DNA of 64,000 bases from Alphaproteobacteria bacterium (GCA_030426925.1 JAUHXT010000002.1:14405-78404), one strand, 5' to 3'; counted from the first letter of the stretch, positions 8,466-62,660 are shown. The notes: generated from the letters alone by a model not told the origin. Made by a program: numbers and translations.

Positions 8466-8503
8466 AAACTGATTCGCGCAGAACTTTTTCAAGCACATTA
8501 ATT

Positions 8504-8531
8504 AAAAAGCGGCTCTCTAGGCCGCTTTTTT
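8504..8531. terminator. Bidirectional intrinsic terminator between convergent genes
   Basis: AAAAAGCGGC-tctctag-GCCGCTTTTTT: a 6-bp GC stem flanked by an A-run and a T-run. It overlaps the bcp stop codon. Confidence 0.6.
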
Positions 8532-8996: not shown

Positions 8997-9077
8997 GGAA
9001 CGTCCTTTCCGTAATTCAATAAACACTGGAAAAAGGCAAAGATTGCCCTCTGGTCATAGCGTAAAAAATCGTGCTTT

Positions 9078-25499: not shown

Positions 25500-25500
25500 G

Positions 25501-39012: not shown

Positions 39013-39371
39013 GGCTCCCTCTATTAATGCCGTTTGCAAAAGTAGGCCTGCTTACCCTCAAACCTGCGCAAAGTATTTGTATAGATGAGACAAAAATGCA
39101 ATAGAAATCGACTGCGAAGTTATTGTTTTCAAAGACTTTTCTCCTTGCGCTGCAGCAAAGGAATCTGCCCGTTTTCAGGAGTTTCTTAATAAATAGAACG
39201 GGTTAGTCGAATGCTTCACTGCAACATAATTTTTGCATATCTACTATGTGTAATGTGCATGGCTCTGCGTTGAAATTCAAGTAATTTGGAAACTTCATGC
39301 ACAGGGGGGTTGAATTAACGCTTCGAACCTCATACAAAAACGACCTGATTTTAACAAGCAGACACATACCT

Positions 39372-42640: not shown

Positions 42641-42768
42641 TAATGGAAACAATGTTTTGGAGCGTCTGTAACGACTGTAAATAAAAGCTGTTTCATATTC
42701 TTTGCTGCCATGCAACAATCCCGGCATAGGATTCTATGTATTACATAAAGTAACACTTGGAGGTTGTA

Positions 42769-44295: not shown

Positions 44296-44305
44296 AAAAA
44301 TCTGC

Positions 44306-45798: not shown

Positions 45799-45871
45799 AA
45801 TACATAGTCTGGTTTGTGATGCTGAGAGCCCTAAACTAGTGGACTTTTCAAGATTTATCAAACCTTTTTTT

Positions 45872-45895
45872 ATTAAATAAAAACAATTATTTAAT
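45872..45895. promoter_or_regulatory. Perfect 9-bp inverted repeat (candidate operator) in the wza/wzx divergent promoter region
   Basis: ATTAAATAA-aaacaa-TTATTTAAT lies in the AT-rich 185-bp spacer. Confidence 0.35.
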
Positions 45896-45983
45896 GTAAA
45901 ATTCTGTGATATCTTGCTTCGTAATTTTTTGCATTATGGTAATATGTGGCGGGCAACAGTAACGATAATGGCGACGGCAACGT

Positions 45984-47231: not shown

Positions 47232-48495
47232 CATCCAGATCACACAGCCAGCGTTTCAGCGCGTCGGCATCACGTTTATTGCGTATGTACCTGTTCCCGT
47301 TCGGTATGGACAGGGCGTGGCGCTTTTCTTCCATAGCCGGCATACCGCCGATATCGCCTTCGCTTTCTATCATGTTCAGTGTCCCTGCTTCGATCCCCTG
47401 CATAAGCTGTGAATCAACAGGATTGCGGGCGGCGGCGAAGCTTCCCGCATACGGCAGGACTTTATATATGAGCTGCGATGATCGAATGGTCGTCCAGCCT
47501 TTTACTTCCAGAAGGCGTTTATGGGACAGGGCAGGGTGCGACGGCGCAGGTTTCAGACACTCCGGCTTGGCATCGTTATTGAACGTATTATCGTGCAGGT
47601 AAACAGTGGTAATCGGCGCGACCTCGAAAAAACCGGGTGCAATGGAAACAGCCGGGTGTTTGCAATATGTGCGCTTCCCGGCGATATAAAGGTTGCCAAT
47701 AACATCAATCGCCCCGCTTTGTTTTGTATTTTGTCCGATATCAAGATGCGTGGCGGCAGCGCCGGGCATCGCCACAATATTATTGATGAACGATACCGTG
47801 TTTCCGGACACAAGGCGCGGACTGCGTTGTTCCGACGCGGCCAGAACAGAACCGATAATATCCACGTGCCGGACATCGCTGCCCAGCAAAAGATTCATGG
47901 AATGCACCCCCTTTGGATGGCCGCCCGCGCGCAGGCCGTGCGCGATGAGCGAACGTTCGATACGCACGCCATCCACCTTGCCTTGTACGCTCATATTCTC
48001 ATCAACGCCCCATCCGGCGGAAACATTGCGGATGACGATGTTCGACAGGGGCCTTGTTAACTTTGAGGAACCGAAGACAGACAGTGCATCTTTTTCACCC
48101 GCTTTTTGTTTGCCTGTCGCCTTCCCGGCATAGATCGAAAGATGAGACAGTTTCACATTACTTGCCCGTATATGAACCCCGTCGCCATACAGGACAATGC
48201 CGGGGGCGGGGGCGGTTTCACCCGCGATATAGGTGCCGGGATTCTCTATTTTGAGCGGGGACTGCAAATCAATGCGCCCGCCGACTTCAAACACGATCAC
48301 ACAGTTCTCGCAGGACTTGATAGCTTGCCGCAGCGAACCGGGGCCGCTGTCCTTTAACGTTGTAACGCCAATAATGCGTGTTCCCTGACGGATCCAGTCT
48401 TCTTGCGCATAGGAAGGGCAGGGCAGGCATAGGGTGAAAACAAAAAGGCAGACCGCAAAAAACACGAACAGGTGTATTGGGCGGGAGTGGGTCAT
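47200..48495 (-). CDS. Secreted right-handed beta-helix polysaccharide lyase (pectate lyase PL1-like)
   Basis: Signal peptide ending SYAQ. DSGPGSLRQAI, IAGETAPAPGI, DALSV, QRSPRL and NN motifs are collinear with the pectate lyase core. Confidence 0.8.
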   Translation of the reverse strand: MTHSRPIHLFVFFAVCLFVFTLCLPCPSYAQEDWIRQGTRIIGVTTLKDSGPGSLRQAIKSCENCVIVFEVGGRIDLQSPLKIENPGTYIAGETAPAPGIVLYGDGVHIRASNVKLSHLSIYAGKATGKQKAGEKDALSVFGSSKLTRPLSNIVIRNVSAGWGVDENMSVQGKVDGVRIERSLIAHGLRAGGHPKGVHSMNLLLGSDVRHVDIIGSVLAASEQRSPRLVSGNTVSFINNIVAMPGAAATHLDIGQNTKQSGAIDVIGNLYIAGKRTYCKHPAVSIAPGFFEVAPITTVYLHDNTFNNDAKPECLKPAPSHPALSHKRLLEVKGWTTIRSSQLIYKVLPYAGSFAAARNPVDSQLMQGIEAGTLNMIESEGDIGGMPAMEEKRHALSIPNGNRYIRNKRDADALKRWLCDLDVKASGLRSCR

Positions 48496-49625
48496 CGTGC
48501 CAGAACGTCCTTAATTTCTTTCTCTTCACGGTCAACATAACTTTTGATCGTATGCCGTTCCATGATAAACGCCCGTGCATTTTTTGCGATCTTTTTATTG
48601 TCCGGGTCTGCCTGTGCGCTCTTAATGGCTTCAGCCAGAGATTGCGCGCTGACGTCTTTTGACAGGTAGCCCGTTTCACCGTGCTGAATGAGGGCCGTAG
48701 TCCCGGAAATGGGAGTGCCGATACACACCATGTCTGCGGCCATGGCTTCGATCAATACTTTCGGCAGCCCTTCGTGCAGGCTGGGCAGAATGAAGTATTT
48801 ATGGCGCTTCAACAGCTCCGCTATTTCTTCATTGGACAGTACGGGATGATAGTCGATCTTGACGCCTAGCTCCCCGGACAGGCTGAGCATTTCATCTGTC
48901 GTACGGCCTTTGCCGACAACAACCAGTGAAATACCGGCAATCGATGCTGCTCTGACCATTTCAAGGATATTTTTTTGGTTCTCAATCCGGCCGATGTAAA
49001 CGATGCTGTTATCATCGGGTTTTATATCAATATCGGATGCAAAGATATCTGTGTTTACATAGGTGGGGGCGACAAAACATTTCCGCTTATTAAACATCAG
49101 TTTTGTGACATAAGCCTTCGCATCGTTCGTCGTCACGGACGCCATATCAGCAAGGTTAAAGCCGATAAATTCGATCAGTAACGCAATAAACGCCTGAAGG
49201 TATTTTTTGTTTTTATAAAGCCGGCGTGAAAGAATATAGCCGCAACGAAGATAAAACCTGCCCCCGCAAAGCCGGACAAGCCACGCCGTCCAGCACCCGT
49301 TGATTTGGTTGGTTCTTGCGATTTGGACACCGTTCTGAACGGCTTGCTTTATTTTCCGGATATTTAGGGAATGTCTGATCGCTCCAAAAACAGATGTGAC
49401 AGGTGTATCGGGGGCGACGAATTCAAAACGGTTTTTTATGTCATCGTCAATGTTCAGCGCGTTCAGGATGTCTTGGTCATTCTGCCCATAAGTGAAAATG
49501 ACGACGTTGGAAAACAGATCGCGCTTCAGATATTCGATGCAGACCTCCAGTTCACGCCGGACAATCCCTTCGCGCTGCCATTTTTCAAGCGATCCTTTAA
49601 ACGTCAGGACAAGTAGCAGTTTCAT
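48492..49625 (-). CDS. Glycosyltransferase family 4 (GT-B)
   Basis: C-terminal EX7E region LPSLHEGLPKVLIEAMA. Confidence 0.88.
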   Translation of the reverse strand: MKLLLVLTFKGSLEKWQREGIVRRELEVCIEYLKRDLFSNVVIFTYGQNDQDILNALNIDDDIKNRFEFVAPDTPVTSVFGAIRHSLNIRKIKQAVQNGVQIARTNQINGCWTAWLVRLCGGRFYLRCGYILSRRLYKNKKYLQAFIALLIEFIGFNLADMASVTTNDAKAYVTKLMFNKRKCFVAPTYVNTDIFASDIDIKPDDNSIVYIGRIENQKNILEMVRAASIAGISLVVVGKGRTTDEMLSLSGELGVKIDYHPVLSNEEIAELLKRHKYFILPSLHEGLPKVLIEAMAADMVCIGTPISGTTALIQHGETGYLSKDVSAQSLAEAIKSAQADPDNKKIAKNARAFIMERHTIKSYVDREEKEIKDVLAR

Positions 49626-50695
49626 GCCACAACCCCGGTAAGTGTAAGAATTTCTTTCACAGCATCATCCCAGTCATTGAAATCAGACGTATCTACCATA
49701 TACCGCTCAGGCGAAGATAGGGCATCTTTAATTTTTTCCGCCAAGGCTTTGGGGTTATGCGCGTCGAAATATATATGATCGGCAAGATTTAAATCGCGGT
49801 TGGCTTCGATATCGGACAAAATAACGGGAATGCCGTTTTGAATGGCTTCCAAAACGGCGTTTGACATGCCTTCATGGATAGAACAGTTGATATACAGGCT
49901 TTTCTTCTGCAACTCTTCCAAAACCGTATCGCGCTTCTGAACCTCGGCAAATTCAATATTCGCTTCCGGATTTTCGCTTAAATAATGTTTTAGCTCCCCG
50001 GCTTCCCCTGTAAGGTCAGCACCGCCGATAATGGTGATATGCGGCCCGCCTGTACCCAGAAGACTGGAAGCTTCGGCAAGGACAGCGTAGTTTTTTTGCA
50101 TGGTCACACGGCCCACAGCCACGGCTGTGTTCTGCCCGCGTTCAGTTAAAGGGGTATTGTCATTCGCCCGGTCAATACCGTTTCTGACAAGTTGTGTCGG
50201 TATGCCCAGCCCTTCAAGGTGGCGCTTGATATTGGGAGCAACCGCAATCACCGTATCGGCATAACGGCAGAACTTTTCCGTCACACGCATGAAAAGCTTC
50301 ATTGCTGGTCCCCACTTGTCCAGCAGGTAATCAACCGACCCGCTGCGCAAATGGATTTTGGCGCGGCGCCAGAATACGGCCCGCATCAAGGGGATCAGAA
50401 CGGCAAAGTTTGTCCCGAATATGAACACGTGGTCGTAGCGGTGGGTGATGTATTGATACAGGGCATACAGGATATAGAGCGCCTTGTCGGTTTTAAACTT
50501 CCTGGATTTCGGAACCATGATAACCCGCAGGCCGCTTGGCGCATCCTGTCCCGGCGGGTGCAGGGACAACACGTCAATATCCGCATGCGGCAATGAGCGT
50601 GGAATAAAAGCATCCGCGAATTTTTCAATACCCCCTTCATAACCGAAAATGCCGCGCGGCCCGATAACAAGAAGGCGCGGCTTTTTATTTTCCAC
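49622..50695 (-). CDS. Glycosyltransferase family 4 (GT-B)
   Basis: NCSIHEGMSNAVLEAIQNGIP (EX7E). Start proposed at GTG 50695 (VENKKPRLLVIGPRG), overlapping the upstream stop. The track ORF extends 72 more codons inside the upstream gene. Confidence 0.8.
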   Translation of the reverse strand: MENKKPRLLVIGPRGIFGYEGGIEKFADAFIPRSLPHADIDVLSLHPPGQDAPSGLRVIMVPKSRKFKTDKALYILYALYQYITHRYDHVFIFGTNFAVLIPLMRAVFWRRAKIHLRSGSVDYLLDKWGPAMKLFMRVTEKFCRYADTVIAVAPNIKRHLEGLGIPTQLVRNGIDRANDNTPLTERGQNTAVAVGRVTMQKNYAVLAEASSLLGTGGPHITIIGGADLTGEAGELKHYLSENPEANIEFAEVQKRDTVLEELQKKSLYINCSIHEGMSNAVLEAIQNGIPVILSDIEANRDLNLADHIYFDAHNPKALAEKIKDALSSPERYMVDTSDFNDWDDAVKEILTLTGVVA

Positions 50696-51488
50696 GTCCC
50701 AGGCTCCTTCGCAGTTGTCTCGCCCAGTTTGGTGTCGCCAGAAGAACGGCATATTGAAGAAGTGTCGGCCAGAAGGATAAATCACCGTCGCTTTGTGCGC
50801 AGTGTAGCAGACGCGCGGCCATGGAATGGAGAATCTGCCGCTTGCGTTTTGAAACCGTGATGGACGTCGGCAGGTACTGGCGCGTGACCAGAACTTTGGG
50901 AACGCAGCCAAAGCGCAAACCGTTTCTTAAGGCGCGTAAATAAAGCTCGTAATCCTGCGCATAACGGAAAGCCTCGTTATAAAACCCCAGGGGTTCGAGA
51001 CTGGATTTTTTAAAGGATACGGAGGAATGAACGATGAAATTGCGCCGCGCCAGCTTGTTTGCGATGCCAGCATGATCGACCGGGCCATCGATGAGCCATT
51101 CGCGCCCGCTGCTTGGGTCAACCCCGCGCGCATGGGAAAAAACAATATCGGCATCAGGGTGCGCATCATAATACGCGGACAGTTCATCCAGCCTGGACGC
51201 ATCGGGAATATCGTCATCGTCTGTACGTACGATGATGTCGCCCGTCGCAACCGCTAGCCCGCGATTAAGAGAGCGCGTCAGGCCAATATTGGTGTCATTC
51301 TTCAGCACGTTCATACGGGCGTCCTGAAGTATCGTGTCCGCAAGAAAGTCTTCTATCCTGCAATCCGGGTTATCGACAACCAAGATAACTTCACAAGACT
51401 GCGCGCTGCCCAGAAAAATGTCGGCTATTTGTTCAAGGTATTTGGATCCGGTTGTACCGATAAGGATTGAAAATCTGGGCGTACCCAT
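50685..51488 (-). CDS. Glycosyltransferase family 2
   Basis: FSILIGT start, the VDN motif, and the DDDD (DxD) motif TDDDDIPD. Start at ATG 51488. Confidence 0.85.
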   Translation of the reverse strand: MGTPRFSILIGTTGSKYLEQIADIFLGSAQSCEVILVVDNPDCRIEDFLADTILQDARMNVLKNDTNIGLTRSLNRGLAVATGDIIVRTDDDDIPDASRLDELSAYYDAHPDADIVFSHARGVDPSSGREWLIDGPVDHAGIANKLARRNFIVHSSVSFKKSSLEPLGFYNEAFRYAQDYELYLRALRNGLRFGCVPKVLVTRQYLPTSITVSKRKRQILHSMAARLLHCAQSDGDLSFWPTLLQYAVLLATPNWARQLRRSLGRGK

Positions 51489-51489
51489 C

Positions 51490-52647
51490 TTACACCCCCT
51501 TCGCAGGAATGGTTTTAGCTGAAGACGGTTCCTGAGCATCGGTTTCGTCTTTTAGTTCAAGAACGGCGCGCTGGCCGTTCAAACCGATATACCCGAACGC
51601 CCGTATAAGAATACCGGTAAGCGGGCGGCGGAACCGCCATTCTACCAGCTTTGATCCTGTGACCGAGACCGCCATAACGAAAACAAACGCAACAACAATA
51701 GCGGAATTGATCCCGATGTGCGGCGTTAACATTAAAATAATGGAAAGCCCGACGACCTGATGGAACAGGTAAATAGAATAGCTGTATTCCCCGGCCAGAC
51801 GCGTTAAATGGCCTTTGCAGGCAAGTTTGTCGAAGATAAGGAACAAAGTGAAAATAGCGATGAATTCAACAGTATCCATGACTTCGAAGTCCGGGTTCAG
51901 CGAGGCGGCATAAAGGAACTGTGAGCAGACAAGAATGCAGCAAATGCCAAAAACCATATTGATATTGCGCTGGAACAGCAACATTCCCACGGCAAAAAAC
52001 GGCAGGTATTGTGCAATGATCACGCCATGTAACAGTTTATTGTACAAGGTGTATTCGTCGCCACCCAGGGTAATAAGTATAAATAAGTCGGTCATTGCGA
52101 GAATAATAGCAAACCAGGAAAAGGCTTCGATATAGCGTTGTTTAAACAAAAGGGCAAAAATACCGACAAAAAGGTAGAATTTCAATTCGACCAGAATGGA
52201 CCAAAATACACCATCAAGCCAGTTAAAGCCGAAATCTTCGAGAAAGAACGACGTGCCAAGGTAATCCCAGAATGTGCGGTCTGTGACGTCAAATCCTTTC
52301 GGTCCATCCGGTACGACCGGGGTAGGAAAACTAATCAGCCATACCAGAACAAACGTGTTGGCCAGTAAAAACAGAGGCCAGATCCGTGAAATACGTTTGG
52401 CATAAAATTCTCCAAGTGTTTGGCTGTTTTTAATGGTCTTTGCAATCAGATAGCCTGAAATAACAAAGAAGATATAAACCCCGATTTTTCCGGAGAAAAA
52501 CTCCACCAGCGGAGGGGTGTCGGACCCCATATAAACGGCAGGTATTCTGTTTGTATAATGATATATCACGACAAGCAAAACAGCGATCCCGCGCAACTGC
52601 TCGATAAATAGATTCTTCTCTTTTGTTAAGTGATAAGGGTCAGGCAT
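51490..52647 (-). CDS. Acyltransferase family 3 membrane protein (O-acyltransferase)
   Basis: LRGIAVLLVVIYH N-terminal motif and about 10 TM segments. Confidence 0.85.
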   Translation of the reverse strand: MPDPYHLTKEKNLFIEQLRGIAVLLVVIYHYTNRIPAVYMGSDTPPLVEFFSGKIGVYIFFVISGYLIAKTIKNSQTLGEFYAKRISRIWPLFLLANTFVLVWLISFPTPVVPDGPKGFDVTDRTFWDYLGTSFFLEDFGFNWLDGVFWSILVELKFYLFVGIFALLFKQRYIEAFSWFAIILAMTDLFILITLGGDEYTLYNKLLHGVIIAQYLPFFAVGMLLFQRNINMVFGICCILVCSQFLYAASLNPDFEVMDTVEFIAIFTLFLIFDKLACKGHLTRLAGEYSYSIYLFHQVVGLSIILMLTPHIGINSAIVVAFVFVMAVSVTGSKLVEWRFRRPLTGILIRAFGYIGLNGQRAVLELKDETDAQEPSSAKTIPAKGV

Positions 52648-53740
52648 GTTTATCTCTATAGATGTTGGCTGTTTGCCTTTTGTAAGAGTTGGTGGCTTTG
52701 TGCAGTATTCGCATCATGTTTCGTTCCAGCAATAAATAGCTGAACAAAGAGGCGATTATTGAGGCAGTGATAGCAGTGATCACGAAAAGCGAAAGGCTTT
52801 CCAAGCCTATTTTGTTCCATATATAGGCAAACGGAACAAGGGCGAACGGGTGGCACAAATACAGGGAGTACGACGCATCGCCCAGTAGAACCAGAAATTG
52901 ATTAAACTTGTTATGGCCGGACTGCAGCGGTTTCATCATAATCAATGACGCAGAAATCAGTAAGGCCGGAAACCCCCTGGCCAGGGCACGGAAATCGTTT
53001 TCATCTATATATGTCCCGGCGAGTATCCAAAGCCCGACACCCGTCGCAAACAGCGCCAGAGCTACAGGCAGTGGTATTGTACGCACCCGTACATAAACGG
53101 CATACAGCATCATCCCGTACAGGAATTCCAGCATGACCGTGTTTGCAAAGAATGAAAAAATGAAATGATTCTGTTCGAAAAAGTACCCGATAACATTCAA
53201 ACCGATAAGAACGGCAGCGATATAATACTTTCTGGAGCTGTTTGCCAACAGCAACGCACCGGTTGCTATGACGTAAAAGAACATTTCGTAGTTCAGGGTC
53301 CATCCCTGTGCAAGAATAGGGCGCAATATACCGTTTTCGTTCGGCCATGGGATAAACAGGAACGACGTTAAAACATGCGCAGGCGAGAGTTCGCTTTTAT
53401 CTATGAGCCCGGAAAACAGTACAATGGCCAGAACCATCAGAAGGCTATAGAACCAGTATATGGGGACAATGCGTATGATACGCCGTAACAGGAAATTCTT
53501 GGTGTTCTCAACGCTCGGCTCCATCTTGGTGCTGATGAACGTGATGATAAACCCTGAAATGATAAAGAACAGGTCGACACCGGCGCCCCACGGCACCCGC
53601 TCAATCAAACCGTGCATGTCATCGCTGATTAATCCGTTTTTATGGGCCTGTAAAAACACATGCCCGATCAGCACCATGAGAGCGGCATAAAACCGCAAAA
53701 CCTGAACGCTATAGAGTTTTTGGCCGGAAGATGCTGTCAT
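52640..53740 (-). CDS. Acyltransferase family 3 membrane protein (O-acyltransferase), second copy
   Basis: LRFYAALMVLIGH motif; polytopic. Start at ATG 53740, overlapping the wzy stop (ATGA). Confidence 0.85.
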   Translation of the reverse strand: MTASSGQKLYSVQVLRFYAALMVLIGHVFLQAHKNGLISDDMHGLIERVPWGAGVDLFFIISGFIITFISTKMEPSVENTKNFLLRRIIRIVPIYWFYSLLMVLAIVLFSGLIDKSELSPAHVLTSFLFIPWPNENGILRPILAQGWTLNYEMFFYVIATGALLLANSSRKYYIAAVLIGLNVIGYFFEQNHFIFSFFANTVMLEFLYGMMLYAVYVRVRTIPLPVALALFATGVGLWILAGTYIDENDFRALARGFPALLISASLIMMKPLQSGHNKFNQFLVLLGDASYSLYLCHPFALVPFAYIWNKIGLESLSLFVITAITASIIASLFSYLLLERNMMRILHKATNSYKRQTANIYRDKHA

Positions 53741-55095
53741 GTTGCATTCTCCGCGCCATTCAGTGTTTTTAGTCTGTCTTGCCGTTGCTTTGCGCAAGTT
53801 ATCAAAACCGGAACAAAATACCAGATCATGAAATCTCCAAACAGTGGCCCGTCATTATGGAAGAAGATATGAACTATATAAGGGACAAAGCCTATGGCAA
53901 TCAGCATATTTTGTTTGATTTTTAACAGAACATATGTGGCAAGGGGCAGGATAAGGACACCATATTTATGCAGCATATTCAGGTAATAGTTATGAATGGC
54001 GTTGCCTTTTATCGTTTCTGCGTTTTCATAAATAGACATCTGGTCCCAGAATTGCGGAACATACTTGGTGGAATCAAATATCAGCCCGTATCCCATGGGA
54101 TGAGATGTAAAAAGCAGCCATCCGTAATCCCTGAGAGCCGTACGTCCGACGGATGATTTATCCCCGATGCGAAAGGCCCGGATATCAGTGCTTTGCATGT
54201 AGTTCAGGATTGCATCGAGATTGGAATAAATCAGCAACCCGAAAGGCAAAAGTGTAAAGAGGCCGAGCAGGGCAAGGGCAGGGCGCACGGATGTGACGTA
54301 GATGCCGGCGAATATCAGCCCGCCAAGAATAGGAGAGCGGTTGCCCGATATGATGGAAATGACGATTACGAGTGCAAGGGCAATCCATATCGGCCAAGTC
54401 AGAAGTTTTTTGTCCTGTTCCGGCTTAATGGCTTTTTGAAGGACGAAATAGGCCGCAAAGGCCAGGCAGGTTTGCGTCGCCAGATGGACGGGTGAAAAGG
54501 ACAGTCCCATGGCTCGTGCCCGCTCTTGCAGGAAAAAACGGTACATATCATCGTTTTGGATCGCCTGCAGGCTGTCCCGTATATTCCATGCCGCGGATAT
54601 GTCCAGAAATTGAAAAACGGCAAGCCCGGCGGAAAGCCCGACAACGACCATGAAAGCATAGACAAGCTTACGTGCGCCGATTGTATGAAGCAATCCGTAG
54701 CCGGTCAGAACGCCAATCGCGGCCTGTATATGCAGTTCAACGATCTGTCGCAGCACATCGCTGACCGGCAGACTGTTGTATAGGCTGACAATCAGCCCCA
54801 AAAGCGCGGCGTAGGAAATCACCAGCAAGACAGGCAGTGTATGCTTAATGGCATCAACAAACAGTCTTGGGCGCAGGACAAAAACCGACAGGAATAGGAG
54901 AACAACATACAGGGAACGCACGGGCACGCCGCCGGTCAGGAAGCGGACCAGCGCAATTGACAAAAAGAATAGAAGAATAGTGCCGAAGAAATAGGCATGC
55001 GCAGTAAGGGATGAATAAGCCGATGCCGAAAACACATTCACGGGTTCTGGCGCTATACTTTTATCCGCTGTGGCCGTATCGTTCTCGTTCTGCAC
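53737..55095 (-). CDS. O-antigen ligase/polymerase-like (Wzy-type) membrane protein
   Basis: More than 10 TM segments with one larger loop, in an EPS operon context. Confidence 0.75.
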   Translation of the reverse strand: MQNENDTATADKSIAPEPVNVFSASAYSSLTAHAYFFGTILLFFLSIALVRFLTGGVPVRSLYVVLLFLSVFVLRPRLFVDAIKHTLPVLLVISYAALLGLIVSLYNSLPVSDVLRQIVELHIQAAIGVLTGYGLLHTIGARKLVYAFMVVVGLSAGLAVFQFLDISAAWNIRDSLQAIQNDDMYRFFLQERARAMGLSFSPVHLATQTCLAFAAYFVLQKAIKPEQDKKLLTWPIWIALALVIVISIISGNRSPILGGLIFAGIYVTSVRPALALLGLFTLLPFGLLIYSNLDAILNYMQSTDIRAFRIGDKSSVGRTALRDYGWLLFTSHPMGYGLIFDSTKYVPQFWDQMSIYENAETIKGNAIHNYYLNMLHKYGVLILPLATYVLLKIKQNMLIAIGFVPYIVHIFFHNDGPLFGDFMIWYFVPVLITCAKQRQDRLKTLNGAENAT

Positions 55096-55128
55096 GACTG
55101 AAAAACCCTTGCGCTGCTGCTGTAATAG

Positions 55129-56427
55129 CTAGCTGTTTAATTTTGTGCGCTCGAAATTAGCAATAACCGGCACACCAAGCGCTTGAGCAATCTGCTCCGG
55201 TGTGGAAAATCGTTCGTCCATAAATTCAAAGGCAAATCCGATGAACAGGCCGATGGAAAGGCCGGCAAGCAGAAAAGCCAGAAGGATGATGGCATTGGGA
55301 CGGCCGATAGGTTTTGGCGGTGTCAGGGCAGGGTCGATAATTGTAATCCGCGTGATATTCTGGGCATTCAAAAGGTTGTTGACCCGCGCTTCTTCCCCGC
55401 GCTGCTTGTAATACCTGTAGTTCTCCTCATTCAGCCGCAGGTTCTGTTGAAGCTCGTTATACTGTCCGCGATAGGCTTCAAGCTCGGCAATCCGCTGGTT
55501 GATAGAGTCCACTTTCTGCCCCAGTTCAGACTCTTCTCCATTCACAAGGGAGTTGAGGTCCTTTTCCCGCTGATCAAGGTTCTGCCGCGCCACGCCAACG
55601 GCCTGATTTGCTTTTTTCTGGAGCGCGCTTTGGGACCGGTAATTATTTCTGTCCTGTGCGGCCTGCCCACGTGCCTCTGCCAAAGATTGGCGTGCATCGC
55701 TAACGGCATTATAGGCAATGGAGATTAATTCGCTTTTTTGTTTCAACAGTTGCGCCATTTCCTGATCAATATCGGAAATGCCGTGCTCACTTTTGAATTC
55801 ATACAGTTCTTCCCGCGCTTTCTCGACTTTGCCCTTCATGGCACTGGACTGCTCATCCAGAAACTTAGTCTGCGCGGTATCATAAATATTCGCCTGCTTC
55901 GCGATGAAGGCCTCCATCAGCGTGTTGACCAGTTCGGAGGCAATCAGAGGATCTGCATGTGTGTAATAAATGTCGATAATCGTGTTGGTACCGTTGTTAA
56001 TGACATTCAGGTCTTCCAGCACATTGGCCGCTGTGATTTGAATCTTTTCTTCGTCACTCAGTGCTGCCCACTTTTTCTCTTCGGACGGCTTTTGCTGAAC
56101 GTGGATTTTCTCAATCCCCATCTTGGTGACGACTTCACCGAGCAACGCCTGGCTTTTCAGAATGCGGATGTAGGAGTCCAGCACTTCCTTGCGTTCGTAA
56201 TTGGCGCTCTTGTTGGCCCTGCGTTCTCCGGACAGGTTAACGTCCGGCCGGGCCTCCTCGCCGAATTTCACCAGCATGCCGCCCTGTGCTTTATACATAT
56301 CGTTACTGTTGGTCACGATAAACGCGCCCAAACAAGCAAACAGTAAAAAGATGAAGAAGATTTTGTATTTCTGGCGGAAAAATGCGTGAAGAATACCGCG
56401 TATATTATATTCAAAGCCCATATGCAT
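55129..56427 (-). CDS. Polysaccharide chain-length determinant (Wzz/GumC-like PCP)
   Basis: An N-terminal TM (IFFIFLLFACLGAFIV), a long coiled-coil periplasmic region, and a C-terminal TM with P-rich motif LTPPKPIGRPN. Confidence 0.8.
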   Translation of the reverse strand: MHMGFEYNIRGILHAFFRQKYKIFFIFLLFACLGAFIVTNSNDMYKAQGGMLVKFGEEARPDVNLSGERRANKSANYERKEVLDSYIRILKSQALLGEVVTKMGIEKIHVQQKPSEEKKWAALSDEEKIQITAANVLEDLNVINNGTNTIIDIYYTHADPLIASELVNTLMEAFIAKQANIYDTAQTKFLDEQSSAMKGKVEKAREELYEFKSEHGISDIDQEMAQLLKQKSELISIAYNAVSDARQSLAEARGQAAQDRNNYRSQSALQKKANQAVGVARQNLDQREKDLNSLVNGEESELGQKVDSINQRIAELEAYRGQYNELQQNLRLNEENYRYYKQRGEEARVNNLLNAQNITRITIIDPALTPPKPIGRPNAIILLAFLLAGLSIGLFIGFAFEFMDERFSTPEQIAQALGVPVIANFERTKLNS

Positions 56428-56522
56428 ACCCCGCTGCTGTAGCGGTTGCACTATAAAAGTCGGAATAGTTGAAATCAACGATTATTTTTACAGAATTCCG
56501 GATATTTTTAGAGCCTGATTAC

Positions 56523-56564: not shown

Positions 56565-56639
56565 GGGCGGTTAGCTCAGCGGGAGAGCACTACGTTGACA
56601 TCGTAGGGGTCACTGGTTCGATCCCAGTACCGCCCACCA
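56565..56639 (+). tRNA. tRNA-Val (GAC anticodon)
   Basis: GGGCGGTTAGCTCAGCGGGAGAGCACTACGTTGACATCGTAGGGGTCACTGGTTCGATCCCAGTACCGCCCACCA folds by hand into a 75-nt cloverleaf. Anticodon loop UUGACAU, encoded CCA. Confidence 0.93.
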
Positions 56640-57091
56640 TTTTCCATAATATAAAAAACATGTTTATGCGACCGTTCCGGAGACGGAGCGGTTCGTTTGC
56701 CGTGTACAGGATTATAAATCTGCTTCCTTGATGAAATACTCTGGCAGGTGGGCATAATATAGATGGTATAAAATACATGTTCATGTCCGATTTTTATTGA
56801 CGAAAATCAAAAAATATTTAAGATGATATTTAAATATAAAAATAAAATTTAACAGGGAAATTAAATATGCAAGCGCACTTTACTTGACTGCGGCAAGCCG
56901 CATTTATCCTCACATAGAAAATTATTGACGGGCGATTACTTGTCCGGCCGATAGGTATTTTTTGTGGCTTCTTAAGCTTATTTGTTTAAGGGCAGGGGGA
57001 ATTCATAACAAAAATAAACCGTGCAACAGACCGGCTTTAAGCAGCTTTTCTGAACGGTAAAACACATAAAAACACACACAGGGAGTTAACT

Positions 57092-58852
57092 ATGACCAAA
57101 GGAGCAAACCGCTTTGGCGACCTACAGGCACGCCTCGCACAAGCAGACACAGGAACAGAAACAGATCGCGGCAAAAACCGCCTGCGCGAACGCTTTCGTT
57201 CAACGGAAGAGCAGGACAACACGCGAACGCAAACCGCCGTTGAGCAATCCGAGTTCTATAAAACACTGATTGATCCGGATATCGAACCCGAAAAAAAGGT
57301 CGAATTGCTGGCCGAAATGATGGTGTTTGATGAAGAAGATCTGGAAAAAAATCCGGAACAAATGAAAGAGATGAAGGCAGTTGTTGCACAACTCCTGAGT
57401 GATTTCAAACAATACAGCGTTGATGTATTGGAACTGATCCGCGATAACCCGCTTTCCGAACTTGGTACGGATATTAAAAGTGTTTTTGAACGGTATCACC
57501 AGGTCGTATCGGAAAGAGAAGGCCTTGACAAAAAGCTGGAACTGATTGATGAGGCACTGAGCCGCCACGGTGGACCGGAAGGTCTTGTCAAAGCACTTCA
57601 CAGTGCGAAAAACAACGCCGGTGAGCAGGAAGCATTCAAGGAAGAGTTGGATGAAGCACGGCAGGAAGTCGAGCGTATGGGTGGAGACCTGCGCGGACTG
57701 GACGGCGCAGTACGTGTCCTGACTGCCAGCATTAGCGAAGCAGAAAGCGATTCATTCCTTTTCTTTAAATCAGGAAAGAAACGTGAAATTGCAGAGCAAA
57801 AAAAACAGCTTGTCGATAAGAAGATCGACCGTGAAAAGCTGGCTGCCGACCTTGAGGAAAAGAAAGAGCAGTTAAGCGCGAAAGCCGGAGAGTATGAAGC
57901 GCTTCTAAAGGATGATGATTTCATGCTTCACCAGAGGATCCTGGAAATTTTGGATGTGGGATCCCCGGAGTTCAAGGAGCAGATTGCACGCCTTGCGCAG
58001 TTGACCATTGATTATGTCGGTGACACGGAAACTATTCTGAGTGACAGCCGTGATCAGATCGCGGCCTTGCTGGAAAGAAGTCAGCGCGTCCTGAACATGA
58101 TTCAGAACACCGGTGAACATGTGAGCGTCCTTCTGGCCGCGCAGAACAAGGCGCAGGGCATCAACACCGATAAGCTGACCGGCATAGAAGCACAAGCGCA
58201 GCAAGCGTCCGGACTGGAAGGAATGAAGCTGGCCAAAAAGCGCACGGCCCTGAACCGCCACATAACGGATACATCCGGCGCGGTTCGTTCATCCGCCTTG
58301 ATCGGTCAGGAGCTTAGTAAGGTCGAAACGTCGCAGGTCGCTTTTGTCGGCCGCCTGCACGAAGGTCTTTCCGATGCGGAAGAACAGCAGCTCATTTCTA
58401 CCGGCAGTGCGTCTATGACAGGGGTCGCAACGCTAAGCCGCGTGGAATCTCTGGCTGCCCAAATTCCCGGCCTGATAGCCAAAGGGCAGTATGCACAGGA
58501 CAGTGAATATGCTCTGGGAGAGTTGAACAAGGAATTCGAACGGGCACTGGCCGCGAAAATTTCCGGAAACGACTCTTTGGGTACATTCACGGACGTTCTG
58601 AAAGACGTACGCGAAGCCATGCGTGACAGGACCGACCTGGATATTGAAATTGCCAGACAAAGAAAAGGCCTGATTGACGGAATGATTGAGGAGACAGAAA
58701 AACTGGCTCGTATCAATCAGGAAGCACAGTCCATTGAAGGTGCTGTGAACCAGGAACTGTATGGCAAAAAACCTGATGCTGCTCAGGCAGGTCCAAGGGG
58801 TGGCGGAGGAGGCGCTGTGCCCGATGGCGCTGCTTTAAGAATGGTCATTTAG
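57092..58852 (+). CDS. Large coiled-coil protein of unknown function (tentatively TelA-like) with Gly-rich C-terminal tail
   Basis: 586 aa, E/K/Q/L-rich with heptad-like runs throughout. CAGGGAG SD. The tail reads GPRGGGGGAVPDGAALRMVI. Confidence 0.85.
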   Translation: MTKGANRFGDLQARLAQADTGTETDRGKNRLRERFRSTEEQDNTRTQTAVEQSEFYKTLIDPDIEPEKKVELLAEMMVFDEEDLEKNPEQMKEMKAVVAQLLSDFKQYSVDVLELIRDNPLSELGTDIKSVFERYHQVVSEREGLDKKLELIDEALSRHGGPEGLVKALHSAKNNAGEQEAFKEELDEARQEVERMGGDLRGLDGAVRVLTASISEAESDSFLFFKSGKKREIAEQKKQLVDKKIDREKLAADLEEKKEQLSAKAGEYEALLKDDDFMLHQRILEILDVGSPEFKEQIARLAQLTIDYVGDTETILSDSRDQIAALLERSQRVLNMIQNTGEHVSVLLAAQNKAQGINTDKLTGIEAQAQQASGLEGMKLAKKRTALNRHITDTSGAVRSSALIGQELSKVETSQVAFVGRLHEGLSDAEEQQLISTGSASMTGVATLSRVESLAAQIPGLIAKGQYAQDSEYALGELNKEFERALAAKISGNDSLGTFTDVLKDVREAMRDRTDLDIEIARQRKGLIDGMIEETEKLARINQEAQSIEGAVNQELYGKKPDAAQAGPRGGGGGAVPDGAALRMVI

Positions 58853-58865: not shown

Positions 58866-58898
58866 GTGGAGCCGTGCCAATCGCGGTTGCGGCTCCAC
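58866..58898 (+). other. Intercistronic 9-bp GC-rich hairpin
   Basis: GTGGAGCCG-15 nt loop-CGGCTCCAC, 14 nt after the stop of gene 1 and not followed by a clean U-run. Confidence 0.45.
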
Positions 58899-58937: not shown

Positions 58938-61301
58938 ATGTCTAAGGCACGTTCAAAGAAAAACGGCACGGTTTTGTACGATCTGGAAGATCACGTAGAA
59001 AATAATGATGCAGAGTTCAAATTGGTTGGAGACGGTGATATTGAAAAAATATCCAGTATCCTGGGGCAAAGCCGTAGCCCGAACCTTTTATATATAGGTA
59101 AATCCGGGCTGGGAAAGACAGCCAACCTGTACGGGATTGCCCAAAGGAAGAAAGTAACGATTGATGGAACGCTGGGGCCGGATGAAACGCGGCTGCCACT
59201 TCATATGATCGACAGGCGTTACCTGGTGCTGGATACCAACCGCTTGTTCAGCCGGAACGACCCGGAGCGCATCCAGCAAAAATTGCAGGAAATATTCGCG
59301 GAACTGGATAAGCCTGGCCGCCATGTATTGATTATCGAAGACATGAACGACTGGCTGCGCGGTATCGAAGATAACCAGTGTCAGGGCATGATCCCGTCCT
59401 TTATCAACCAGTTGAAGCGCGGATCGTTCCAGTTGATTGCCATGGTCCGCGACGAACCAGGCAAAAACAATCTGGCCCGTATACTGGAAACACATTCCGA
59501 GATGACGGAACTGTTCACGGTTCTTGAAAAGAAACCACCAAGCAAGGACGAGGTGCTGGAGATTATGCGCCGGAGCAAGGGAGCGCTGGAAGCCCACCAC
59601 GACGGCCTGCATATCACCGACGAAGCCAATGAAGAAGTCGTCAACCTGACATTTCTTTACCCGAATTTACGCCAGTACATGCGTGAACAGCCCGCACGGT
59701 CGTTGCGGATGCGCGACCAGATCGCCAGCACCTTTGTATCCAGAAGGCAGTCCAGACCGCAGGAACTTATGGAACTGGAACGTGAACTGGAAGGCATAAC
59801 GGAAAAACTGGAAGCCGGAGATGAAACACCGGAATTACTGGCCGCAAAAGCAACCGTTGAAGCACAGATCGATCAGGTGCAGGAAGCATGGGACAAGAGA
59901 ACGCACGAACTGGGGCAGGCTTACCTGAAAAAACGTAATCTGGAGCGCGACCTTCAGGAACTGGAAGCCGATATAGAGGACGAAAAAGAAAAAATAGGCG
60001 AGTCTTTTGAAAGTGAACATGGCCGCACGATGACCGATAAGGACATGGCGAACCATAAAACTCCGAACCTGAAAGAACTGGAAACATATGCCCGCCAGGC
60101 GCGCAAGGAACTCGCTGATGCCGATGAGGCCGCACAGGCCATCAAAAGCGATCACAACACCCAGTTAACATTGGACGTCAATGACATTCGCGCCGGTTTC
60201 AGTGAGATGACAGGAATTCCGGTCAAGGACCTGAACGCGGACGAAGCCACAAAAGTCATGGGACTGGACAAGCGGTTAAAAGAGAAAATCTACGGACAGG
60301 ACGATGTCGTCGATACGGTCTCTGGCGCTATCCGCAGGGCCAAGGCCGGATTGAAAGATCCGCAGAAACCGATTGGGTCGTTTATGATGCTGGGGTCTTC
60401 CGGTGTCGGGAAAAGTTATATGGCGGAATGTCTGGCTGACGACCTGTATGGCGATAAGGAAGCGTTGACCGTATTCGATATGAGCGAATTCATGGAACGC
60501 CAGAACCTGTCCCGCTTGATCGGAAGTACGCCGGGTCTTGTCGGTTTTGGTGAAGGCGGAAAATTGACCAACGCCGTTCGGGTGCGCCCGTACCAGATTA
60601 TCTTGCTGGACGAGATTGAAAAGGCGCATCCCGACGTGTTCAAAATCCTGCTTCAGGTGTTGGACAAAGGCCGTTTGAGCGATGAAGTGGGTACCGTCGA
60701 TTTTCGCAACACGGTCATCATGATGACCACCAATCTGGGACAGGAACTGTCATTTGATCCGAACCGTACATCCAGAAACAGCCGCGACGATATTATTTCG
60801 GCAGTACGCCGGATATTCCCGCAGGAACTGATCAACCGGGTTGACGATTTCATGCTGTTCAAATCATTAAGCCCCGAAAACGTGCAGAAAATTGTCAGAC
60901 GGGAACTAAAGGGCCTGAACGGCATGCTGGCCGGAAGGAACATGGAAGCCGTTCTGCCGGACGAAGATGTCGCCAGTTTGGTCACCGACAAATACCGTGA
61001 AGAAGAGGGCGCGCGCCAGATCCTTAAATTCATCAATAACAATATGACGGATCAGGTTGCGGATATTGTTCTTAGCCATTCGCATGACAAGAGCGGCGGC
61101 ACGATTATGGTTCGTTACAACCCGGATGACGACCGTTTCGATGTCAGGTTTTCAAAGGGCGGTGGCGGCGTCATCAAGCCGTTTGAGATATCGCCGGATG
61201 AAATCCGCCCAGTTGGAGGGGGCGGGGCAGGTGGCATACCCGGAGTGCCAGGGGGCGCAGCAAGGTCGGCGTTTGCCGCATTTGCACCGTCCTTCCACTA
61301 A
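58938..61301 (+). CDS. ClpB/Hsp104-like double AAA+ ATPase lacking the Clp N-domain, with degenerate NBD1
   Basis: NBD1 has Walker A GKSGLGKT and VLIIEDMND in place of ILFIDELH. A coiled-coil middle region follows. NBD2 is canonical (GSSGVGKS, IILLDEIEKAHPDVF, DFRNTVIMMTTN, GAR). Gly-rich tail. Confidence 0.9.
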   Translation: MSKARSKKNGTVLYDLEDHVENNDAEFKLVGDGDIEKISSILGQSRSPNLLYIGKSGLGKTANLYGIAQRKKVTIDGTLGPDETRLPLHMIDRRYLVLDTNRLFSRNDPERIQQKLQEIFAELDKPGRHVLIIEDMNDWLRGIEDNQCQGMIPSFINQLKRGSFQLIAMVRDEPGKNNLARILETHSEMTELFTVLEKKPPSKDEVLEIMRRSKGALEAHHDGLHITDEANEEVVNLTFLYPNLRQYMREQPARSLRMRDQIASTFVSRRQSRPQELMELERELEGITEKLEAGDETPELLAAKATVEAQIDQVQEAWDKRTHELGQAYLKKRNLERDLQELEADIEDEKEKIGESFESEHGRTMTDKDMANHKTPNLKELETYARQARKELADADEAAQAIKSDHNTQLTLDVNDIRAGFSEMTGIPVKDLNADEATKVMGLDKRLKEKIYGQDDVVDTVSGAIRRAKAGLKDPQKPIGSFMMLGSSGVGKSYMAECLADDLYGDKEALTVFDMSEFMERQNLSRLIGSTPGLVGFGEGGKLTNAVRVRPYQIILLDEIEKAHPDVFKILLQVLDKGRLSDEVGTVDFRNTVIMMTTNLGQELSFDPNRTSRNSRDDIISAVRRIFPQELINRVDDFMLFKSLSPENVQKIVRRELKGLNGMLAGRNMEAVLPDEDVASLVTDKYREEEGARQILKFINNNMTDQVADIVLSHSHDKSGGTIMVRYNPDDDRFDVRFSKGGGGVIKPFEISPDEIRPVGGGGAGGIPGVPGGAARSAFAAFAPSFH

Positions 61302-61328: not shown

Positions 61329-62201
61329 ATGTCCAAAGACCATCAGGACGAAGCATTAAGAAAGGCGAGGGAAACGATCCGCGATCTGGATCGCGACCGA
61401 CAGCAGGAAAAAAGCCGCACAGATTTTGAAGAAGAAGCGGCGAAACCAACTGGCGGATTTGCCGAACAAATCAGGGAAACAGCCAAGGCAGCCCGAACGA
61501 TAAACAAGGCCGTCGGTATTGCGTCAAAAGCATACGAAAAACTGAAGAAATACACCGCTCCGGTATTCTGGATTGCAGGCAAGCTTGTGCGCGGGGCGGG
61601 AACAGCCTTTAAGCACGCCGCCTATATGAAAAACCGGGACGGGTCATTCAAGCTGGATGAAGACGGTGACATGATTTTTTCTGGGAACAAACTGGCTTGT
61701 ACATTTGGCGTGGCGACTTGTATTGGACTTTCGGCATATACCGGTATGAATTACGCATATTATAACGGTACGCATTTCGAAGAACTCGTATACACGACCG
61801 GAAAACAGGAAATTGTCAGCGGTGAGTTGTATCATGTAACGGGCTGTACCTCTTTGCCGTGCTCGACAGACAGCGACAACGGAAAATATTACCAGATAAC
61901 GCAAAGCTGGTTCGCACCGCGCCTTTTGTATCCGGAAGAGACAGTTTACGCCAATATTCCGCAGCAAATCGCCGCCTGCCATTTCGAAGGGTACGGGATT
62001 TATTTTAAAAGCCTGAAGCCGATTATGAGATGGGCGGAGTGGTACCAGAACATTGAAAGCGCATCCTGCCGTACGCTGACAGAAGCGGAAATCCAGCAAA
62101 GTATTCATGATGGCGGCGCTCCGGAAGTTCCGCTCACAAGGCCGGCGCCCACGGAGACTGCTCCGGCTCCGGCACAAGCGCCGGCACCAGCCTTACAATA
62201 A
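61329..62201 (+). CDS. Single-pass membrane protein of unknown function with Cys-containing extracytoplasmic domain and Pro/Ala tail
   Basis: A charged N-terminal ~110 aa, a TM segment LACTFGVATCIGLSAYTGM, a ~140-aa domain with four Cys after the TM segment, and the tail PAPTETAPAPAQAPAPALQ. CAGGGAG SD. Confidence 0.8.
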   Translation: MSKDHQDEALRKARETIRDLDRDRQQEKSRTDFEEEAAKPTGGFAEQIRETAKAARTINKAVGIASKAYEKLKKYTAPVFWIAGKLVRGAGTAFKHAAYMKNRDGSFKLDEDGDMIFSGNKLACTFGVATCIGLSAYTGMNYAYYNGTHFEELVYTTGKQEIVSGELYHVTGCTSLPCSTDSDNGKYYQITQSWFAPRLLYPEETVYANIPQQIAACHFEGYGIYFKSLKPIMRWAEWYQNIESASCRTLTEAEIQQSIHDGGAPEVPLTRPAPTETAPAPAQAPAPALQ

Positions 62202-62219: not shown

Positions 62220-62660
62220 ATGGGAAAAAAACCGGAAGAAAAAGACATCATCGACCAGCTTGCCGATGATATCGCGGATGGCGTCGCAGAAATGAGAGCT
62301 GATTTTAAAGATGCCAGCGACGCCGTACGAAAGGGAATAAAAGGCGGGATTAAAAAGGCCGGGGAGGCGTATGATGAAGCAGGAAAAGTGATCGGCAAGG
62401 ATCGCCTTTTAGGGGCCAGTATCGGGGCTTATAAAGGATGGGCGATTGGAAGCTTTGGCGGCCCTGTAGGCATGATCAAAGGAGTGGTAATCGGTACGGT
62501 CTTTGGGTATGTCGCCGGACCGAAAATAAAGGATTGGTGGAGTGAAGACGACCGCCCTCAGGATAACGATCCGGATGCGCCGCCACCGGAAACAAAAAAC
62601 CCGGGCGCAACTGATCAGCAGGAACGCAAACCACCCGGTATGCATAACAAAAATGAATGA
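62220..62660 (+). CDS. Glycine-zipper small membrane protein
   Basis: The segment GASIGAYKGWAIGSFGGPVGMIKGVVIGTVFGYVAG has a GxxxG-rich pattern. Charged termini. CAGGGAG SD. Confidence 0.75.
   Translation: MGKKPEEKDIIDQLADDIADGVAEMRADFKDASDAVRKGIKGGIKKAGEAYDEAGKVIGKDRLLGASIGAYKGWAIGSFGGPVGMIKGVVIGTVFGYVAGPKIKDWWSEDDRPQDNDPDAPPPETKNPGATDQQERKPPGMHNKNE

Follow-up and report, generated by a model that had tools for sequence, protein, structure and literature searches.

A conserved Hsp100-type protein with a predicted pseudo-ATPase first ring, encoded with two orphan proteins in bacteria and phages

Hsp100 proteins are textbook two-motor unfoldases. What could such a protein do with a first ring that has lost its catalytic residues and its pore loop? 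This question is raised by gene B, located in a stretch of 64,000 nucleotides (nt) from an Alphaproteobacteria bacterium (GCA_030426925.1 JAUHXT010000002.1:14405-78404; this whole stretch is called the window below). A preliminary description of B, drawn from the DNA sequence, had presented it as a ClpB-like scaffold that might work by something other than classical polypeptide threading. Our analysis suggests a more economical answer. The first nucleotide-binding domain (NBD1) appears to be a pseudo-ATPase maintained by selection, the second (NBD2) may well remain a threading motor, and B belongs to a conserved operon, A-B-C, whose two other genes encode orphan proteins and which is also carried by phages. 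The features discussed are collected in Table 1.

The first ring of B and the clade it defines

The state of each motif was read from two independent alignments, one made with HMMER against solved ClpC and ClpB structures and the other with MAFFT, including Escherichia coli ClpB, four ClpC and 68 near-full-length close relatives of B (a distant branch was counted separately). The Walker A motif of NBD1 is intact, with its Lys present in 67 of the 68 close relatives. By contrast with ClpB and Hsp104, the other elements of a competent NBD1 (Asp-Glu, R331/R332 and the sensor-1 Thr) are missing from B. Residues E134-D135 align with ClpB D278-E279, and this 'ED' in place of 'DE' is invariant (68/68). 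At the site of the arginine-finger pair, a conserved family motif replaces ClpB ALERRFQ; the R331 position is Glu in all 68 relatives and the R332 position is Leu, Gln, Phe or Ile (E-L in B). Sensor-1 reads 'MVR' where ClpB has 'ATT', again across the 68 relatives. The pore loop is reduced to a remnant that contains no aromatic residue, and the position of ClpB Y251 is occupied by P, A, T, E or a gap throughout the set (Pro in B).

Pfam recognises no AAA domain in NBD1 of B, which aligns to the D1 domain of ClpC with 42.7 bits (HMMER). Nevertheless, NBD1 is under purifying selection and exhibits the lowest non-synonymous divergence (pN) among all parts of the protein. In three comparisons, with synonymous sites saturated, pN was 0.126 for NBD1 versus 0.147 for NBD2, 0.213 versus 0.272, and 0.176 versus 0.231. 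Since NBD1 diverges no faster than NBD2, it is best viewed as a selected pseudo-ATPase ring and not as a decaying one. New invariant motifs, 'ED' and HS[ED]M..E, have taken the place of the lost catalytic ones. These features recur in dozens of independent sequences and are neither chance nor sequencing error. We thus consider NBD1 to be a strongly selected, apparently non-catalytic domain without a pore loop. In the lineage of the window it probably still binds nucleotide, because the P-loop is intact.

The preliminary description had anticipated much of this. It had noted the retention of the P-loop, the replacement of ALERRFQ by EMTELFT, the absence of Tyr from the first pore loop and the loss of NBD1 catalysis, all of which our alignments confirm, the last at sequence level, with the catalytic Glu, both Arg fingers and the sensor-1 Thr gone. 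Its reading of Walker B, in which Asp was kept and the catalytic Glu had become Met, was off by one register. Five of its six sequence points stand, and this register is the one that does not. It was also right that the N-domain is lacking. Clp_N, a domain of about 145 amino acids (aa) in ClpB, has no Pfam match in B, whose Walker A motif begins at aa 54, and no upstream reading frame supplies it. Gene A occupies the upstream DNA until 58852 and an in-frame TAA is located at 58908, 30 nt before the start of B, which leaves no coding room for Clp_N. A CAGGGAG ribosome-binding motif lies ahead of B at 58924, and the start position is the same in all relatives.

B exhibits the features of double-ring, class 1 Hsp100/Clp proteins: a D1-homologous NBD1 followed by AAA_lid_9 (aa 202-299, a weak match of 28 bits), an AAA_2-type NBD2 (aa 477-637, 177 bits) and ClpB_D2-small (40 bits). 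Its top NCBIfam match is the ClpB model TIGR03346 (2.5e-109), with 367 bits for a cut-off of 1232. The cut-offs of the other models are not reached either: 299 bits against 1417 for NF008118 (ClpB), 333 against 885 for ClpV/TssH (TIGR03345) and 322 against 993 for the ClpA model. B belongs to the Hsp100/Clp superfamily and lacks the tested defining features of ClpB, ClpV, ClpA/ClpC and DolB.

A protein search with B retrieved around 75 clusters of full-length relatives with 33-83% identity, below which ordinary ClpC proteins appear. The distant branch, with about 31% identity, was reached via the downstream gene C. In its NBD1, Walker A reads GGVGCS, with the Lys replaced by Cys, Ser, Gly, Leu or Asn, Walker B reads DD, ED or EN, and the motif HSDM..E is shared with the branch of B. 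Its NBD2 is canonical, with the pore loop GAPPGYEGY. In a neighbour-joining tree with E. coli ClpB, E. coli ClpA, six ClpC and Acinetobacter ClpV as outgroups, the branch of B and the distant branch form a single clade in 100 of 100 bootstrap replicates. Many phyla, and phages as well, contain full-length orthologues. The traits of B define a separate Hsp100 clade, apart from ClpB, ClpC, ClpA and ClpV, and the suggestion that B is no classical ClpB is upheld by the losses in NBD1, by scores far under the family cut-offs and by this clade of its own. Neither the clade nor the A-B-C module turned up in our searches of the literature, and the module is absent from a jumbo-phage survey (PMC7824862) and from a survey of phage shock proteins (PMC11237479). 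The superfamily itself is known; what is new is an Hsp100 subfamily with A and C as obligate orphan partners.

The second ring and its pore loop

The catalytic residues of NBD2 are kept in 67-68 of the 68 relatives, and its pore-loop motif, G-x-x-P-G-[YLF]-x-G-[YF], is strongly conserved in the family. Neither of the two pore-loop tyrosines of ClpB (Y251 and Y653) is present in B. However, the position of Y653 is Tyr in 56 of the close relatives and Leu in 12, the latter being scattered over separate subclades (sequences P0001-7, P0020, P0031 and the phage-type P0069-71). Outside this set, Leu is also found in B of locus L026, and Tyr or Phe is present in each of the 26 distant-branch sequences inspected. 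The change from Tyr to Leu is thus lineage-specific, with several independent origins, and not a family trait. In ClpB, AAA2 is the main threading motor (PMC6593972). With the conserved motif and the dominance of Tyr or Phe, this leads us to view Leu534 as a tolerated gripping variant and not as evidence against threading. Threading by NBD2 is the simplest reading.

The preliminary description had correctly taken NBD2 for canonical apart from a Tyr-to-Leu change in the pore loop. Its statement that both threading tyrosines are lost holds for B itself and not for the family, and the aromatic F537 remains in B. The departure from classical threading that it deduced is not supported, given the conservation of the catalytic residues and of the pore-loop motif in NBD2. 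It also makes no mention of the conserved operon shared with phages, the most telling fact about B.

Between the two rings, a coiled-coil insert stands at the M-domain position, where the same description had placed a coiled coil of about 150 aa. With 152 aa in B, this insert is of a length comparable to that of E. coli ClpB (136 aa), versus 75 aa in ClpC and 18 aa in ClpA. It is the fastest-evolving part of the protein (pN 0.36-0.41). ClpB motif-2, LQYGKIPEL, which includes Y503 and binds DnaK, could not be recognisably aligned in it, the alignment of the coiled coil being unreliable. No ClpP-docking loop (IGF/IGL/VGF) is present between sensor-1 and the Arg finger of NBD2, a region of ClpB-like length. 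At its C-terminus, B carries a Gly-rich extension whose final motif, [AV]FAPx[FM]x, is found in P0001-P0007 and at loci L002, L008, L009 and L031, and is absent from the phage and distant-branch versions. Its penultimate hydrophobic residue loosely recalls, as we take it, the HbYX docking tails of proteasomal ATPases.

The A-B-C module in bacteria and phages

B is flanked in the window by A and C, and C is followed by a further gene, D, all on the same strand and each preceded by the same CAGGGAG motif (at 57079 for A). The order A-B-C recurs with unrelated flanks in a contig of a metagenome-assembled genome (L002), Hyphococcus (L003), Candidatus Entotheonella (L004) and three phage-like contigs (L005, L006 and L156). 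A search of one genome per species with the profile of C alone produced 36 loci. These belong to Micavibrio-like and other Alphaproteobacteria, Pseudobdellovibrionaceae, Halopseudomonas, Vibrio, Motilimonas, Pokkaliibacter, Woeseiaceae, Wenzhouxiangellaceae, Cellvibrionaceae, Arenicellales, Luteimonas and Desulfuromonadales. Of the 36, 34 have B as the immediate upstream neighbour of C, and 32 have an A-sized open reading frame (ORF; 509-631 aa) ahead of B; departures from this arrangement comprise contig ends, a single fragmented locus and L042, where B is absent. Overall, the operon ranges over Alpha-, Gamma- and Deltaproteobacteria, Bdellovibrionota, Entotheonella, T4-like phage contigs and the jumbo phage Atu_ph07, and each of A, B and C is homologous between bacterial and phage loci.

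The spacing of the three genes is also conserved. The B-C gap, 27 nt in the window, has a median of 14 nt over 37 loci and several of the genes overlap, while the median A-B gap is 78 nt. The A-B spacer of the window folds into a hairpin (Table 1). Among the same 37 loci, 32 have a spacer long enough to fold and approximately 19 of these form stable hairpins (z <= -3), phage loci included (among them the window, L002, L005-L009, L011, L012, L016, L019, L021, L024, L026, L028, L041 and L073). Together with the tight or overlapping B-C junction, this hairpin points to tight co-translation of B and C and to production of A in excess, and suggests a conserved differential expression with more A than B and C. 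An alphaproteobacterial sigma-32-type promoter was sought upstream of A and not found.

Protein A belongs to an orphan family with a typical length of about 565 aa. It has no match in Pfam (even at E <= 10), PHROG, PADLOC or the PDB, by sequence or profile. An exhaustive HMMER profile search among 1.84 billion representatives retrieved 60 clusters, all of one family and 550-600 aa long, and ten of the most distant clusters contain no Pfam domain. Homologues of A lie directly upstream of B in other loci, and A of the distant branch is a remote homologue (hhalign probability 96%). The AlphaFold2 model consists of long helices and helical hairpins only, with disordered ends. Foldseek comparison of this model with the PDB gave generic long-helix matches only, such as designed bundles and the MukB elbow; a likeness to the pore toxins AhlB, SmhB and ClyA was weak (TM <= 0.17) and was set aside.

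The end of A differs between the branches. In the distant branch, an acidic linker precedes a conserved [NSTD]PF..[FL] motif, whereas the subclade of the window has a G-rich segment ending in ALRMVI, the form [AV]LRMV[IM] being conserved in the closest relatives only. In the window this tail is RGGGGGAVPDGAALRMVI (58798-58849). We take it to resemble the ClpX-binding 'XB' peptide of E. coli SspB (RGGRPALRVVK), and it may serve as a tether for B or the host ClpX.

Protein C, with 108 homologues and a typical family length of about 255 aa, belongs to no Pfam family, and searches of PHROG, PADLOC and PDB sequences and profiles were uninformative. In its AlphaFold2 model (predicted local distance difference test, pLDDT, 87), charged helices at the N-terminus are followed by a hydrophobic helix (about aa 122-146) and by a C-terminal beta-barrel (aa 149-250) that resembles an oligonucleotide/oligosaccharide-binding (OB) fold. 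In the PDB, Foldseek found only weak matches to generic OB folds (anticodon domains of tRNA synthetases, SSB). The hydrophobic helix is clearly transmembrane in most relatives and is preceded by positive charges. The barrel contains four Cys, which 140 of 146 sequences retain and which are lost pairwise: Atu_ph07 lacks the first pair only and Entotheonella the second pair only. This is the pattern expected of two disulfides, C173-C178 and C217-C247, and hence of a periplasmic domain, so that the OB-like domain is probably located in the periplasm. Gene D lies 18 nt after C and encodes a protein with a charged N-terminal helix and no PADLOC match. Homologues of D follow C at L008 and L012 only, and we regard D as a likely fourth member of the operon, restricted to this lineage.

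In the cultured Agrobacterium jumbo phage Atu_ph07 (L073), gp493 is a homologue of A (hhalign 96.5%) and gp488 a homologue of C (hhalign 97.3%); gp488 is also the best viral structural match of C (Foldseek E = 1.9e-12). Between them, gp492 is a distant-branch B with about 30% identity to B of the window, with GGVGCS and 'EN' in NBD1 and GSPPGFEGF as its second pore loop. It is annotated only as 'ClpB' or 'ATP-dependent protease', and the genome paper lists it among 'Clp-like proteins' and speculates on aggregate removal (PMC6102473). None of gp493, gp492 and gp488 appears in the published table of the Atu_ph07 virion proteome, which suggests that these proteins act inside the infected cell.

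Other viral copies are known from contigs. Capsid genes of the T4 type (Gp23) adjoin the module in the phage-like contigs L005 and L156, and IMG/VR viral contigs L076 (247 kb), L077, L079 and L087 carry it as well. A of L076 shares 47% identity with the A protein of a Vibrio genome, an indication of exchange between phage and bacterium. The IMG/VR members were retrieved only with an Atu_ph07-type query, and IMG/VR scans with the profiles of A and C and with a phage-type B gave no members of the window's own branch. Among GenBank phages, no close relative of B or A was found besides Atu_ph07. The phage-like contig L157 carries a looser variant of the module, with four small genes between the A-sized ORF and B; a DUF2333 protein of 332 aa (11454-12452) is encoded two small genes downstream of B.

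In the window, the module is surrounded by a tRNA-Val gene, an exopolysaccharide gene cluster and a BBP2_2 porin; no genes of a type VI secretion system are found among the neighbours of B. A tRNA-Val(GAC) followed by around 450 nt of AT-rich non-coding DNA directly precedes A (56565-57091), with no clear island boundary. The idea of a genomic island beside this tRNA gene was dropped, as the module, with a GC content of 0.50-0.53, matches the DNA around it. The large exopolysaccharide cluster (42757-56478) encodes Bac_transf, glycosyltransferases, two acyltransferases, Wzy and Wzz. Further away are a TPR-sulfotransferase (1785-3308, +) and a fused CysN/CysC, combining sulfate adenylyltransferase and adenylyl-sulfate kinase (25396-27432, +); together with the cluster, these suggest a sulfated exopolysaccharide. 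The window also encodes a 742-aa homologue of animal haem peroxidases (39897-42128, -; Pfam An_peroxidase, E = 1e-155), unusual in a bacterium, and two long ORFs of 532 aa (37438-39039, -) and 430 aa (47200-48495, -) that match no Pfam family at E <= 1e-5.

Table 1. Position of the A-B-C module, of gene D and of the sequence motifs of protein B in the window.
Feature	Position	Strand	Basis or remark
Gene A, 586-aa all-helical orphan-family protein with disordered N- and C-terminal tails	57092-58852	+	ORF, translation
Hairpin in the A-B spacer, GTGGAGCCG...CGGCTCCAC	58866-58898	+	RNAfold, spacer -33.7 kcal/mol, z = -4.3 versus shuffles
Gene B, 787-aa two-ring Hsp100-type AAA+ protein	58938-61301	+	ATG start; ORF call, translation
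NBD1 Walker A, GKSGLGKT, aa 54-61	59097-59120	+	Alignments; intact
NBD1 pore-loop remnant, LFSRNDPERIQ, aa 103-113	59244-59276	+	Shortened by one residue relative to ClpB
NBD1 Walker B, HVLIIED, aa 129-135	59322-59342	+	Alignments
HSEMTELFT at the NBD1 Arg-finger pair site, aa 186-194	59493-59519	+	Conserved family motif
M-domain-like coiled-coil insert, aa 265-416	59730-60185	+	M-domain position
NBD2 Walker A, GSSGVGKS, aa 486-493	60393-60416	+	Alignments
NBD2 pore loop, GSTPGLVGFGEGG, aa 529-541	60522-60560	+	L534 under ClpB Y653, F537 under ClpB Y656
NBD2 Walker B, IILLDEIEKA, aa 554-563	60597-60626	+	Alignments; D558/E559 canonical
NBD2 sensor-1 MMTTN (aa 595-599), Arg finger LINRVD (aa 631-636), sensor-2 EEGARQ (aa 689-694)	60720-61019	+	Alignments
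Gly-rich C-terminal extension of B, ending AAFAPSFH	61158-61298	+	Specific to the Micavibrio-like subclade
Gene C, 290-aa predicted membrane protein	61329-62201	+	AlphaFold2, hydrophobicity, homologues
Gene D, 146-aa glycine-zipper membrane protein	62220-62660	+	Weak glycine-zipper Pfam matches

Possible roles of the module and its known counterparts

The reading that we favour, holding it with about as much doubt as confidence, is that B is a single-motor double-ring Hsp100 with a dead NBD1 scaffold, and the enzyme of a membrane-associated module formed by A, B and C. B would form rings in which NBD2, as a complete ATPase with a conserved pore loop, translocates polypeptide, while NBD1 and the M-domain-like coiled coil could serve as a scaffold for assembly and docking. 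Since C is a predicted membrane protein translationally coupled to B, B is likely held at the inner membrane, with C as its anchor. The helical and presumably abundant A, with its disordered tails, would be a client of B or else its partner or co-factor. The module could then combine a helical assembly, a dedicated disassembly ATPase and a membrane anchor. As candidate roles, the module could help to maintain membranes under stress or in infected cells, extract or turn over a membrane complex, or act in immunity or exclusion.

Several observations weigh against this proposal. The link of B to A and C is one of gene order alone, and the triad is not absolutely fixed: in Atu_ph07, three small genes (gp491, gp490 and gp489; 8040-9492) lie between gp492 and gp488, gp489 being no homologue of C (hhalign probability 1%), and in L157 no C follows B. 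The model of A has low confidence (mean pLDDT 66, from 13 sequences) and is unlike any known polymer-forming fold. The helix of C is only weakly hydrophobic in the window (maximum KD19 1.37), its topology being predicted from hydrophobicity alone. ClpB needs its NBD1 arginines for oligomerisation (PMC4239642), so that a hexamer of B is an assumption and ring formation must rely on other contacts. Finally, with Leu as the gripping residue, substrates may be handled less firmly or in a different way.

A broader version of this proposal, in which A-B-C is a hitherto unrecognised, horizontally mobile and membrane-associated remodelling machine of bacteria and large lytic phages, whose Hsp100 takes a dedicated helical protein apart or extracts it at the inner membrane, either a counterpart of ESCRT-III/Vps4 or PEX1/6 or a new class of membrane immunity or counter-immunity, is more speculative, and we consider it possible but rather unlikely. 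Less probable again, although compatible with the single-motor mechanism, is an anti-phage defence or superinfection-exclusion cassette with a membrane-acting or abortive effector. The patchy spread of the module over distant phyla and phages, with varying flanks, would fit such a cassette, as would its company at some loci (IS110 and DDE transposases at L069; type I restriction HsdR and a filamentous prophage at L070), the apparently recent exchange between L076 and Vibrio, and the predicted activity of the phage proteins inside the infected cell. A similarity between NBD2 of B and the PADLOC models DolB and PDC-M37B (E = 7e-25 to 5e-28) points in this direction too. However, this resemblance is generic and confined to aa 430-711, and A and C have no PADLOC match. 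Moreover, most loci lie outside recognisable defence islands, the module does not differ from its surroundings in GC content, and in T4-like contigs it adjoins capsid genes.

Two further explanations strike us as improbable to the same degree. According to the first, which is that of the preliminary description, B is a non-threading remodeller or switch, a nucleotide-driven clamp for the assembly or release of partners that does not pull through its pore. L534 in place of the gripping Tyr and an NBD1 without pore loop, catalytic Glu or Arg fingers are in line with this idea, and Leu in 12 of 68 relatives indicates that several lineages can do without a strong aromatic grip. Yet the NBD2 pore loop is among the best-conserved segments of the family, the close relatives mostly keep Tyr and the distant branch Tyr or Phe, F537 is still aromatic and the hydrolysis residues of NBD2 are retained nearly throughout. 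AAA+ translocases that tolerate aliphatic residues at the gripping position, such as the D1 ring of p97 and F228 variants of FtsH, also speak against it.

The second is a general stress disaggregase, stand-alone or assisted by DnaK in the manner of ClpB or ClpG, and akin to an N-terminally truncated isoform of ClpB. The top NCBIfam match to ClpB, the coiled coil of ClpB length and the missing ClpP loop are all compatible with it, as are the annotation of gp492 as ClpB with its suggested role in aggregate removal (PMC6102473) and an Hsp20 gene near the module in the phage contig L006. On the other hand, the ClpB score falls far short of the cut-off and B belongs to a separate clade; the catalysis and pore loop of NBD1, needed for ClpB function, are missing; motif-2 around Y503 is not recognisably conserved, as far as the coiled coil can be aligned; and strict linkage to two dedicated orphans, one of them membrane-bound, is unexpected of a general chaperone. 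A decaying paralogue or an annotation artefact, for which only the failure of Pfam to recognise NBD1 could be cited, is refuted by the low divergence of NBD1, by replacement motifs invariant in 68 of 68 relatives and by full-length orthologues across phyla and phages, and its probability is negligible.

If B is indeed a single-motor Hsp100 with a scaffold ring, its clade would have kept a non-catalytic first ring without pore loop for hundreds of millions of years, and would offer a natural test of what NBD1 does beyond hydrolysis. In the sole motor, the gripping residue has switched among Tyr, Phe and Leu, a variation relevant to the question of how strong an aromatic grip translocation requires. 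B is strictly linked to two orphan families, in a cassette common to proteobacteria, predatory-type bacteria, T4-like marine phages and a jumbo phage, and this points to an undescribed membrane function that is worth carrying for phages. As Atu_ph07 and its Agrobacterium host can be cultured, the function of the module is open to direct genetics.

Among known systems, B shares with ClpB/Hsp104 the double ring, AAA_lid_9, a coiled coil of similar length at the same position, ClpB_D2-small and the absence of a ClpP loop, and its NBD2 is 40-45% identical to those of ClpB and ClpC. It differs in the missing N-domain, in an NBD1 with 'ED' and without Arg fingers, sensor-1 Thr or pore Tyr, in Leu at Y653, in a score below a third of the cut-off and in its obligatory operon with two orphan proteins. 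ClpV/TssH is an Hsp100 dedicated to a co-encoded helical client, the contracted VipA/VipB sheath, and the same logic could apply to B; however, an N-domain recognises the client of ClpV, and both rings of ClpV are canonical. Skd3 (human CLPB) and the plant proteins SMAX1/D53, of which Skd3 and SMAX1 are among the PDB sequence matches of B, are Hsp100 derivatives with an NBD2-type ring only (Skd3) or with degenerate nucleotide sites (SMAX1). Nevertheless, nothing is left of NBD1 in Skd3, a protein with ankyrin repeats, SMAX1 acts as a repressor of signalling in eukaryotes, and neither is linked to partners like A or C. As for Dodola, B has neither a full-length match to DolB/PDC-M37B nor the partner DolA/PDC-M37A.

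The resemblance of the module as a whole to the ClpV-sheath, Vps4-ESCRT-III and PEX1/6-PEX26 systems is one of analogy only. ESCRT-III and Vps4 likewise pair a former of helical assemblies with a dedicated AAA+ protein near the membrane, and bacterial PspA operons are known that encode a two-domain AAA+ protein with an inactive N-terminal copy (PMC11237479). However, neither Pfam nor Foldseek revealed any similarity of A to PspA, Snf7 or ESCRT-III, and the ATPases of these systems are classical AAA proteins and not Hsp100. PEX1/PEX6 with PEX26/PEX15, and NSF, are double-ring AAA+ machines with one non-hydrolysing scaffold ring, one motor and a small membrane-anchored recruiter. They are eukaryotic and belong to the classical AAA clade, so that the AAA+ fold alone is common to them and B. 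By contrast, gp493-gp492-gp488 of Atu_ph07 is a true member of the A-B-C module, from its distant branch.

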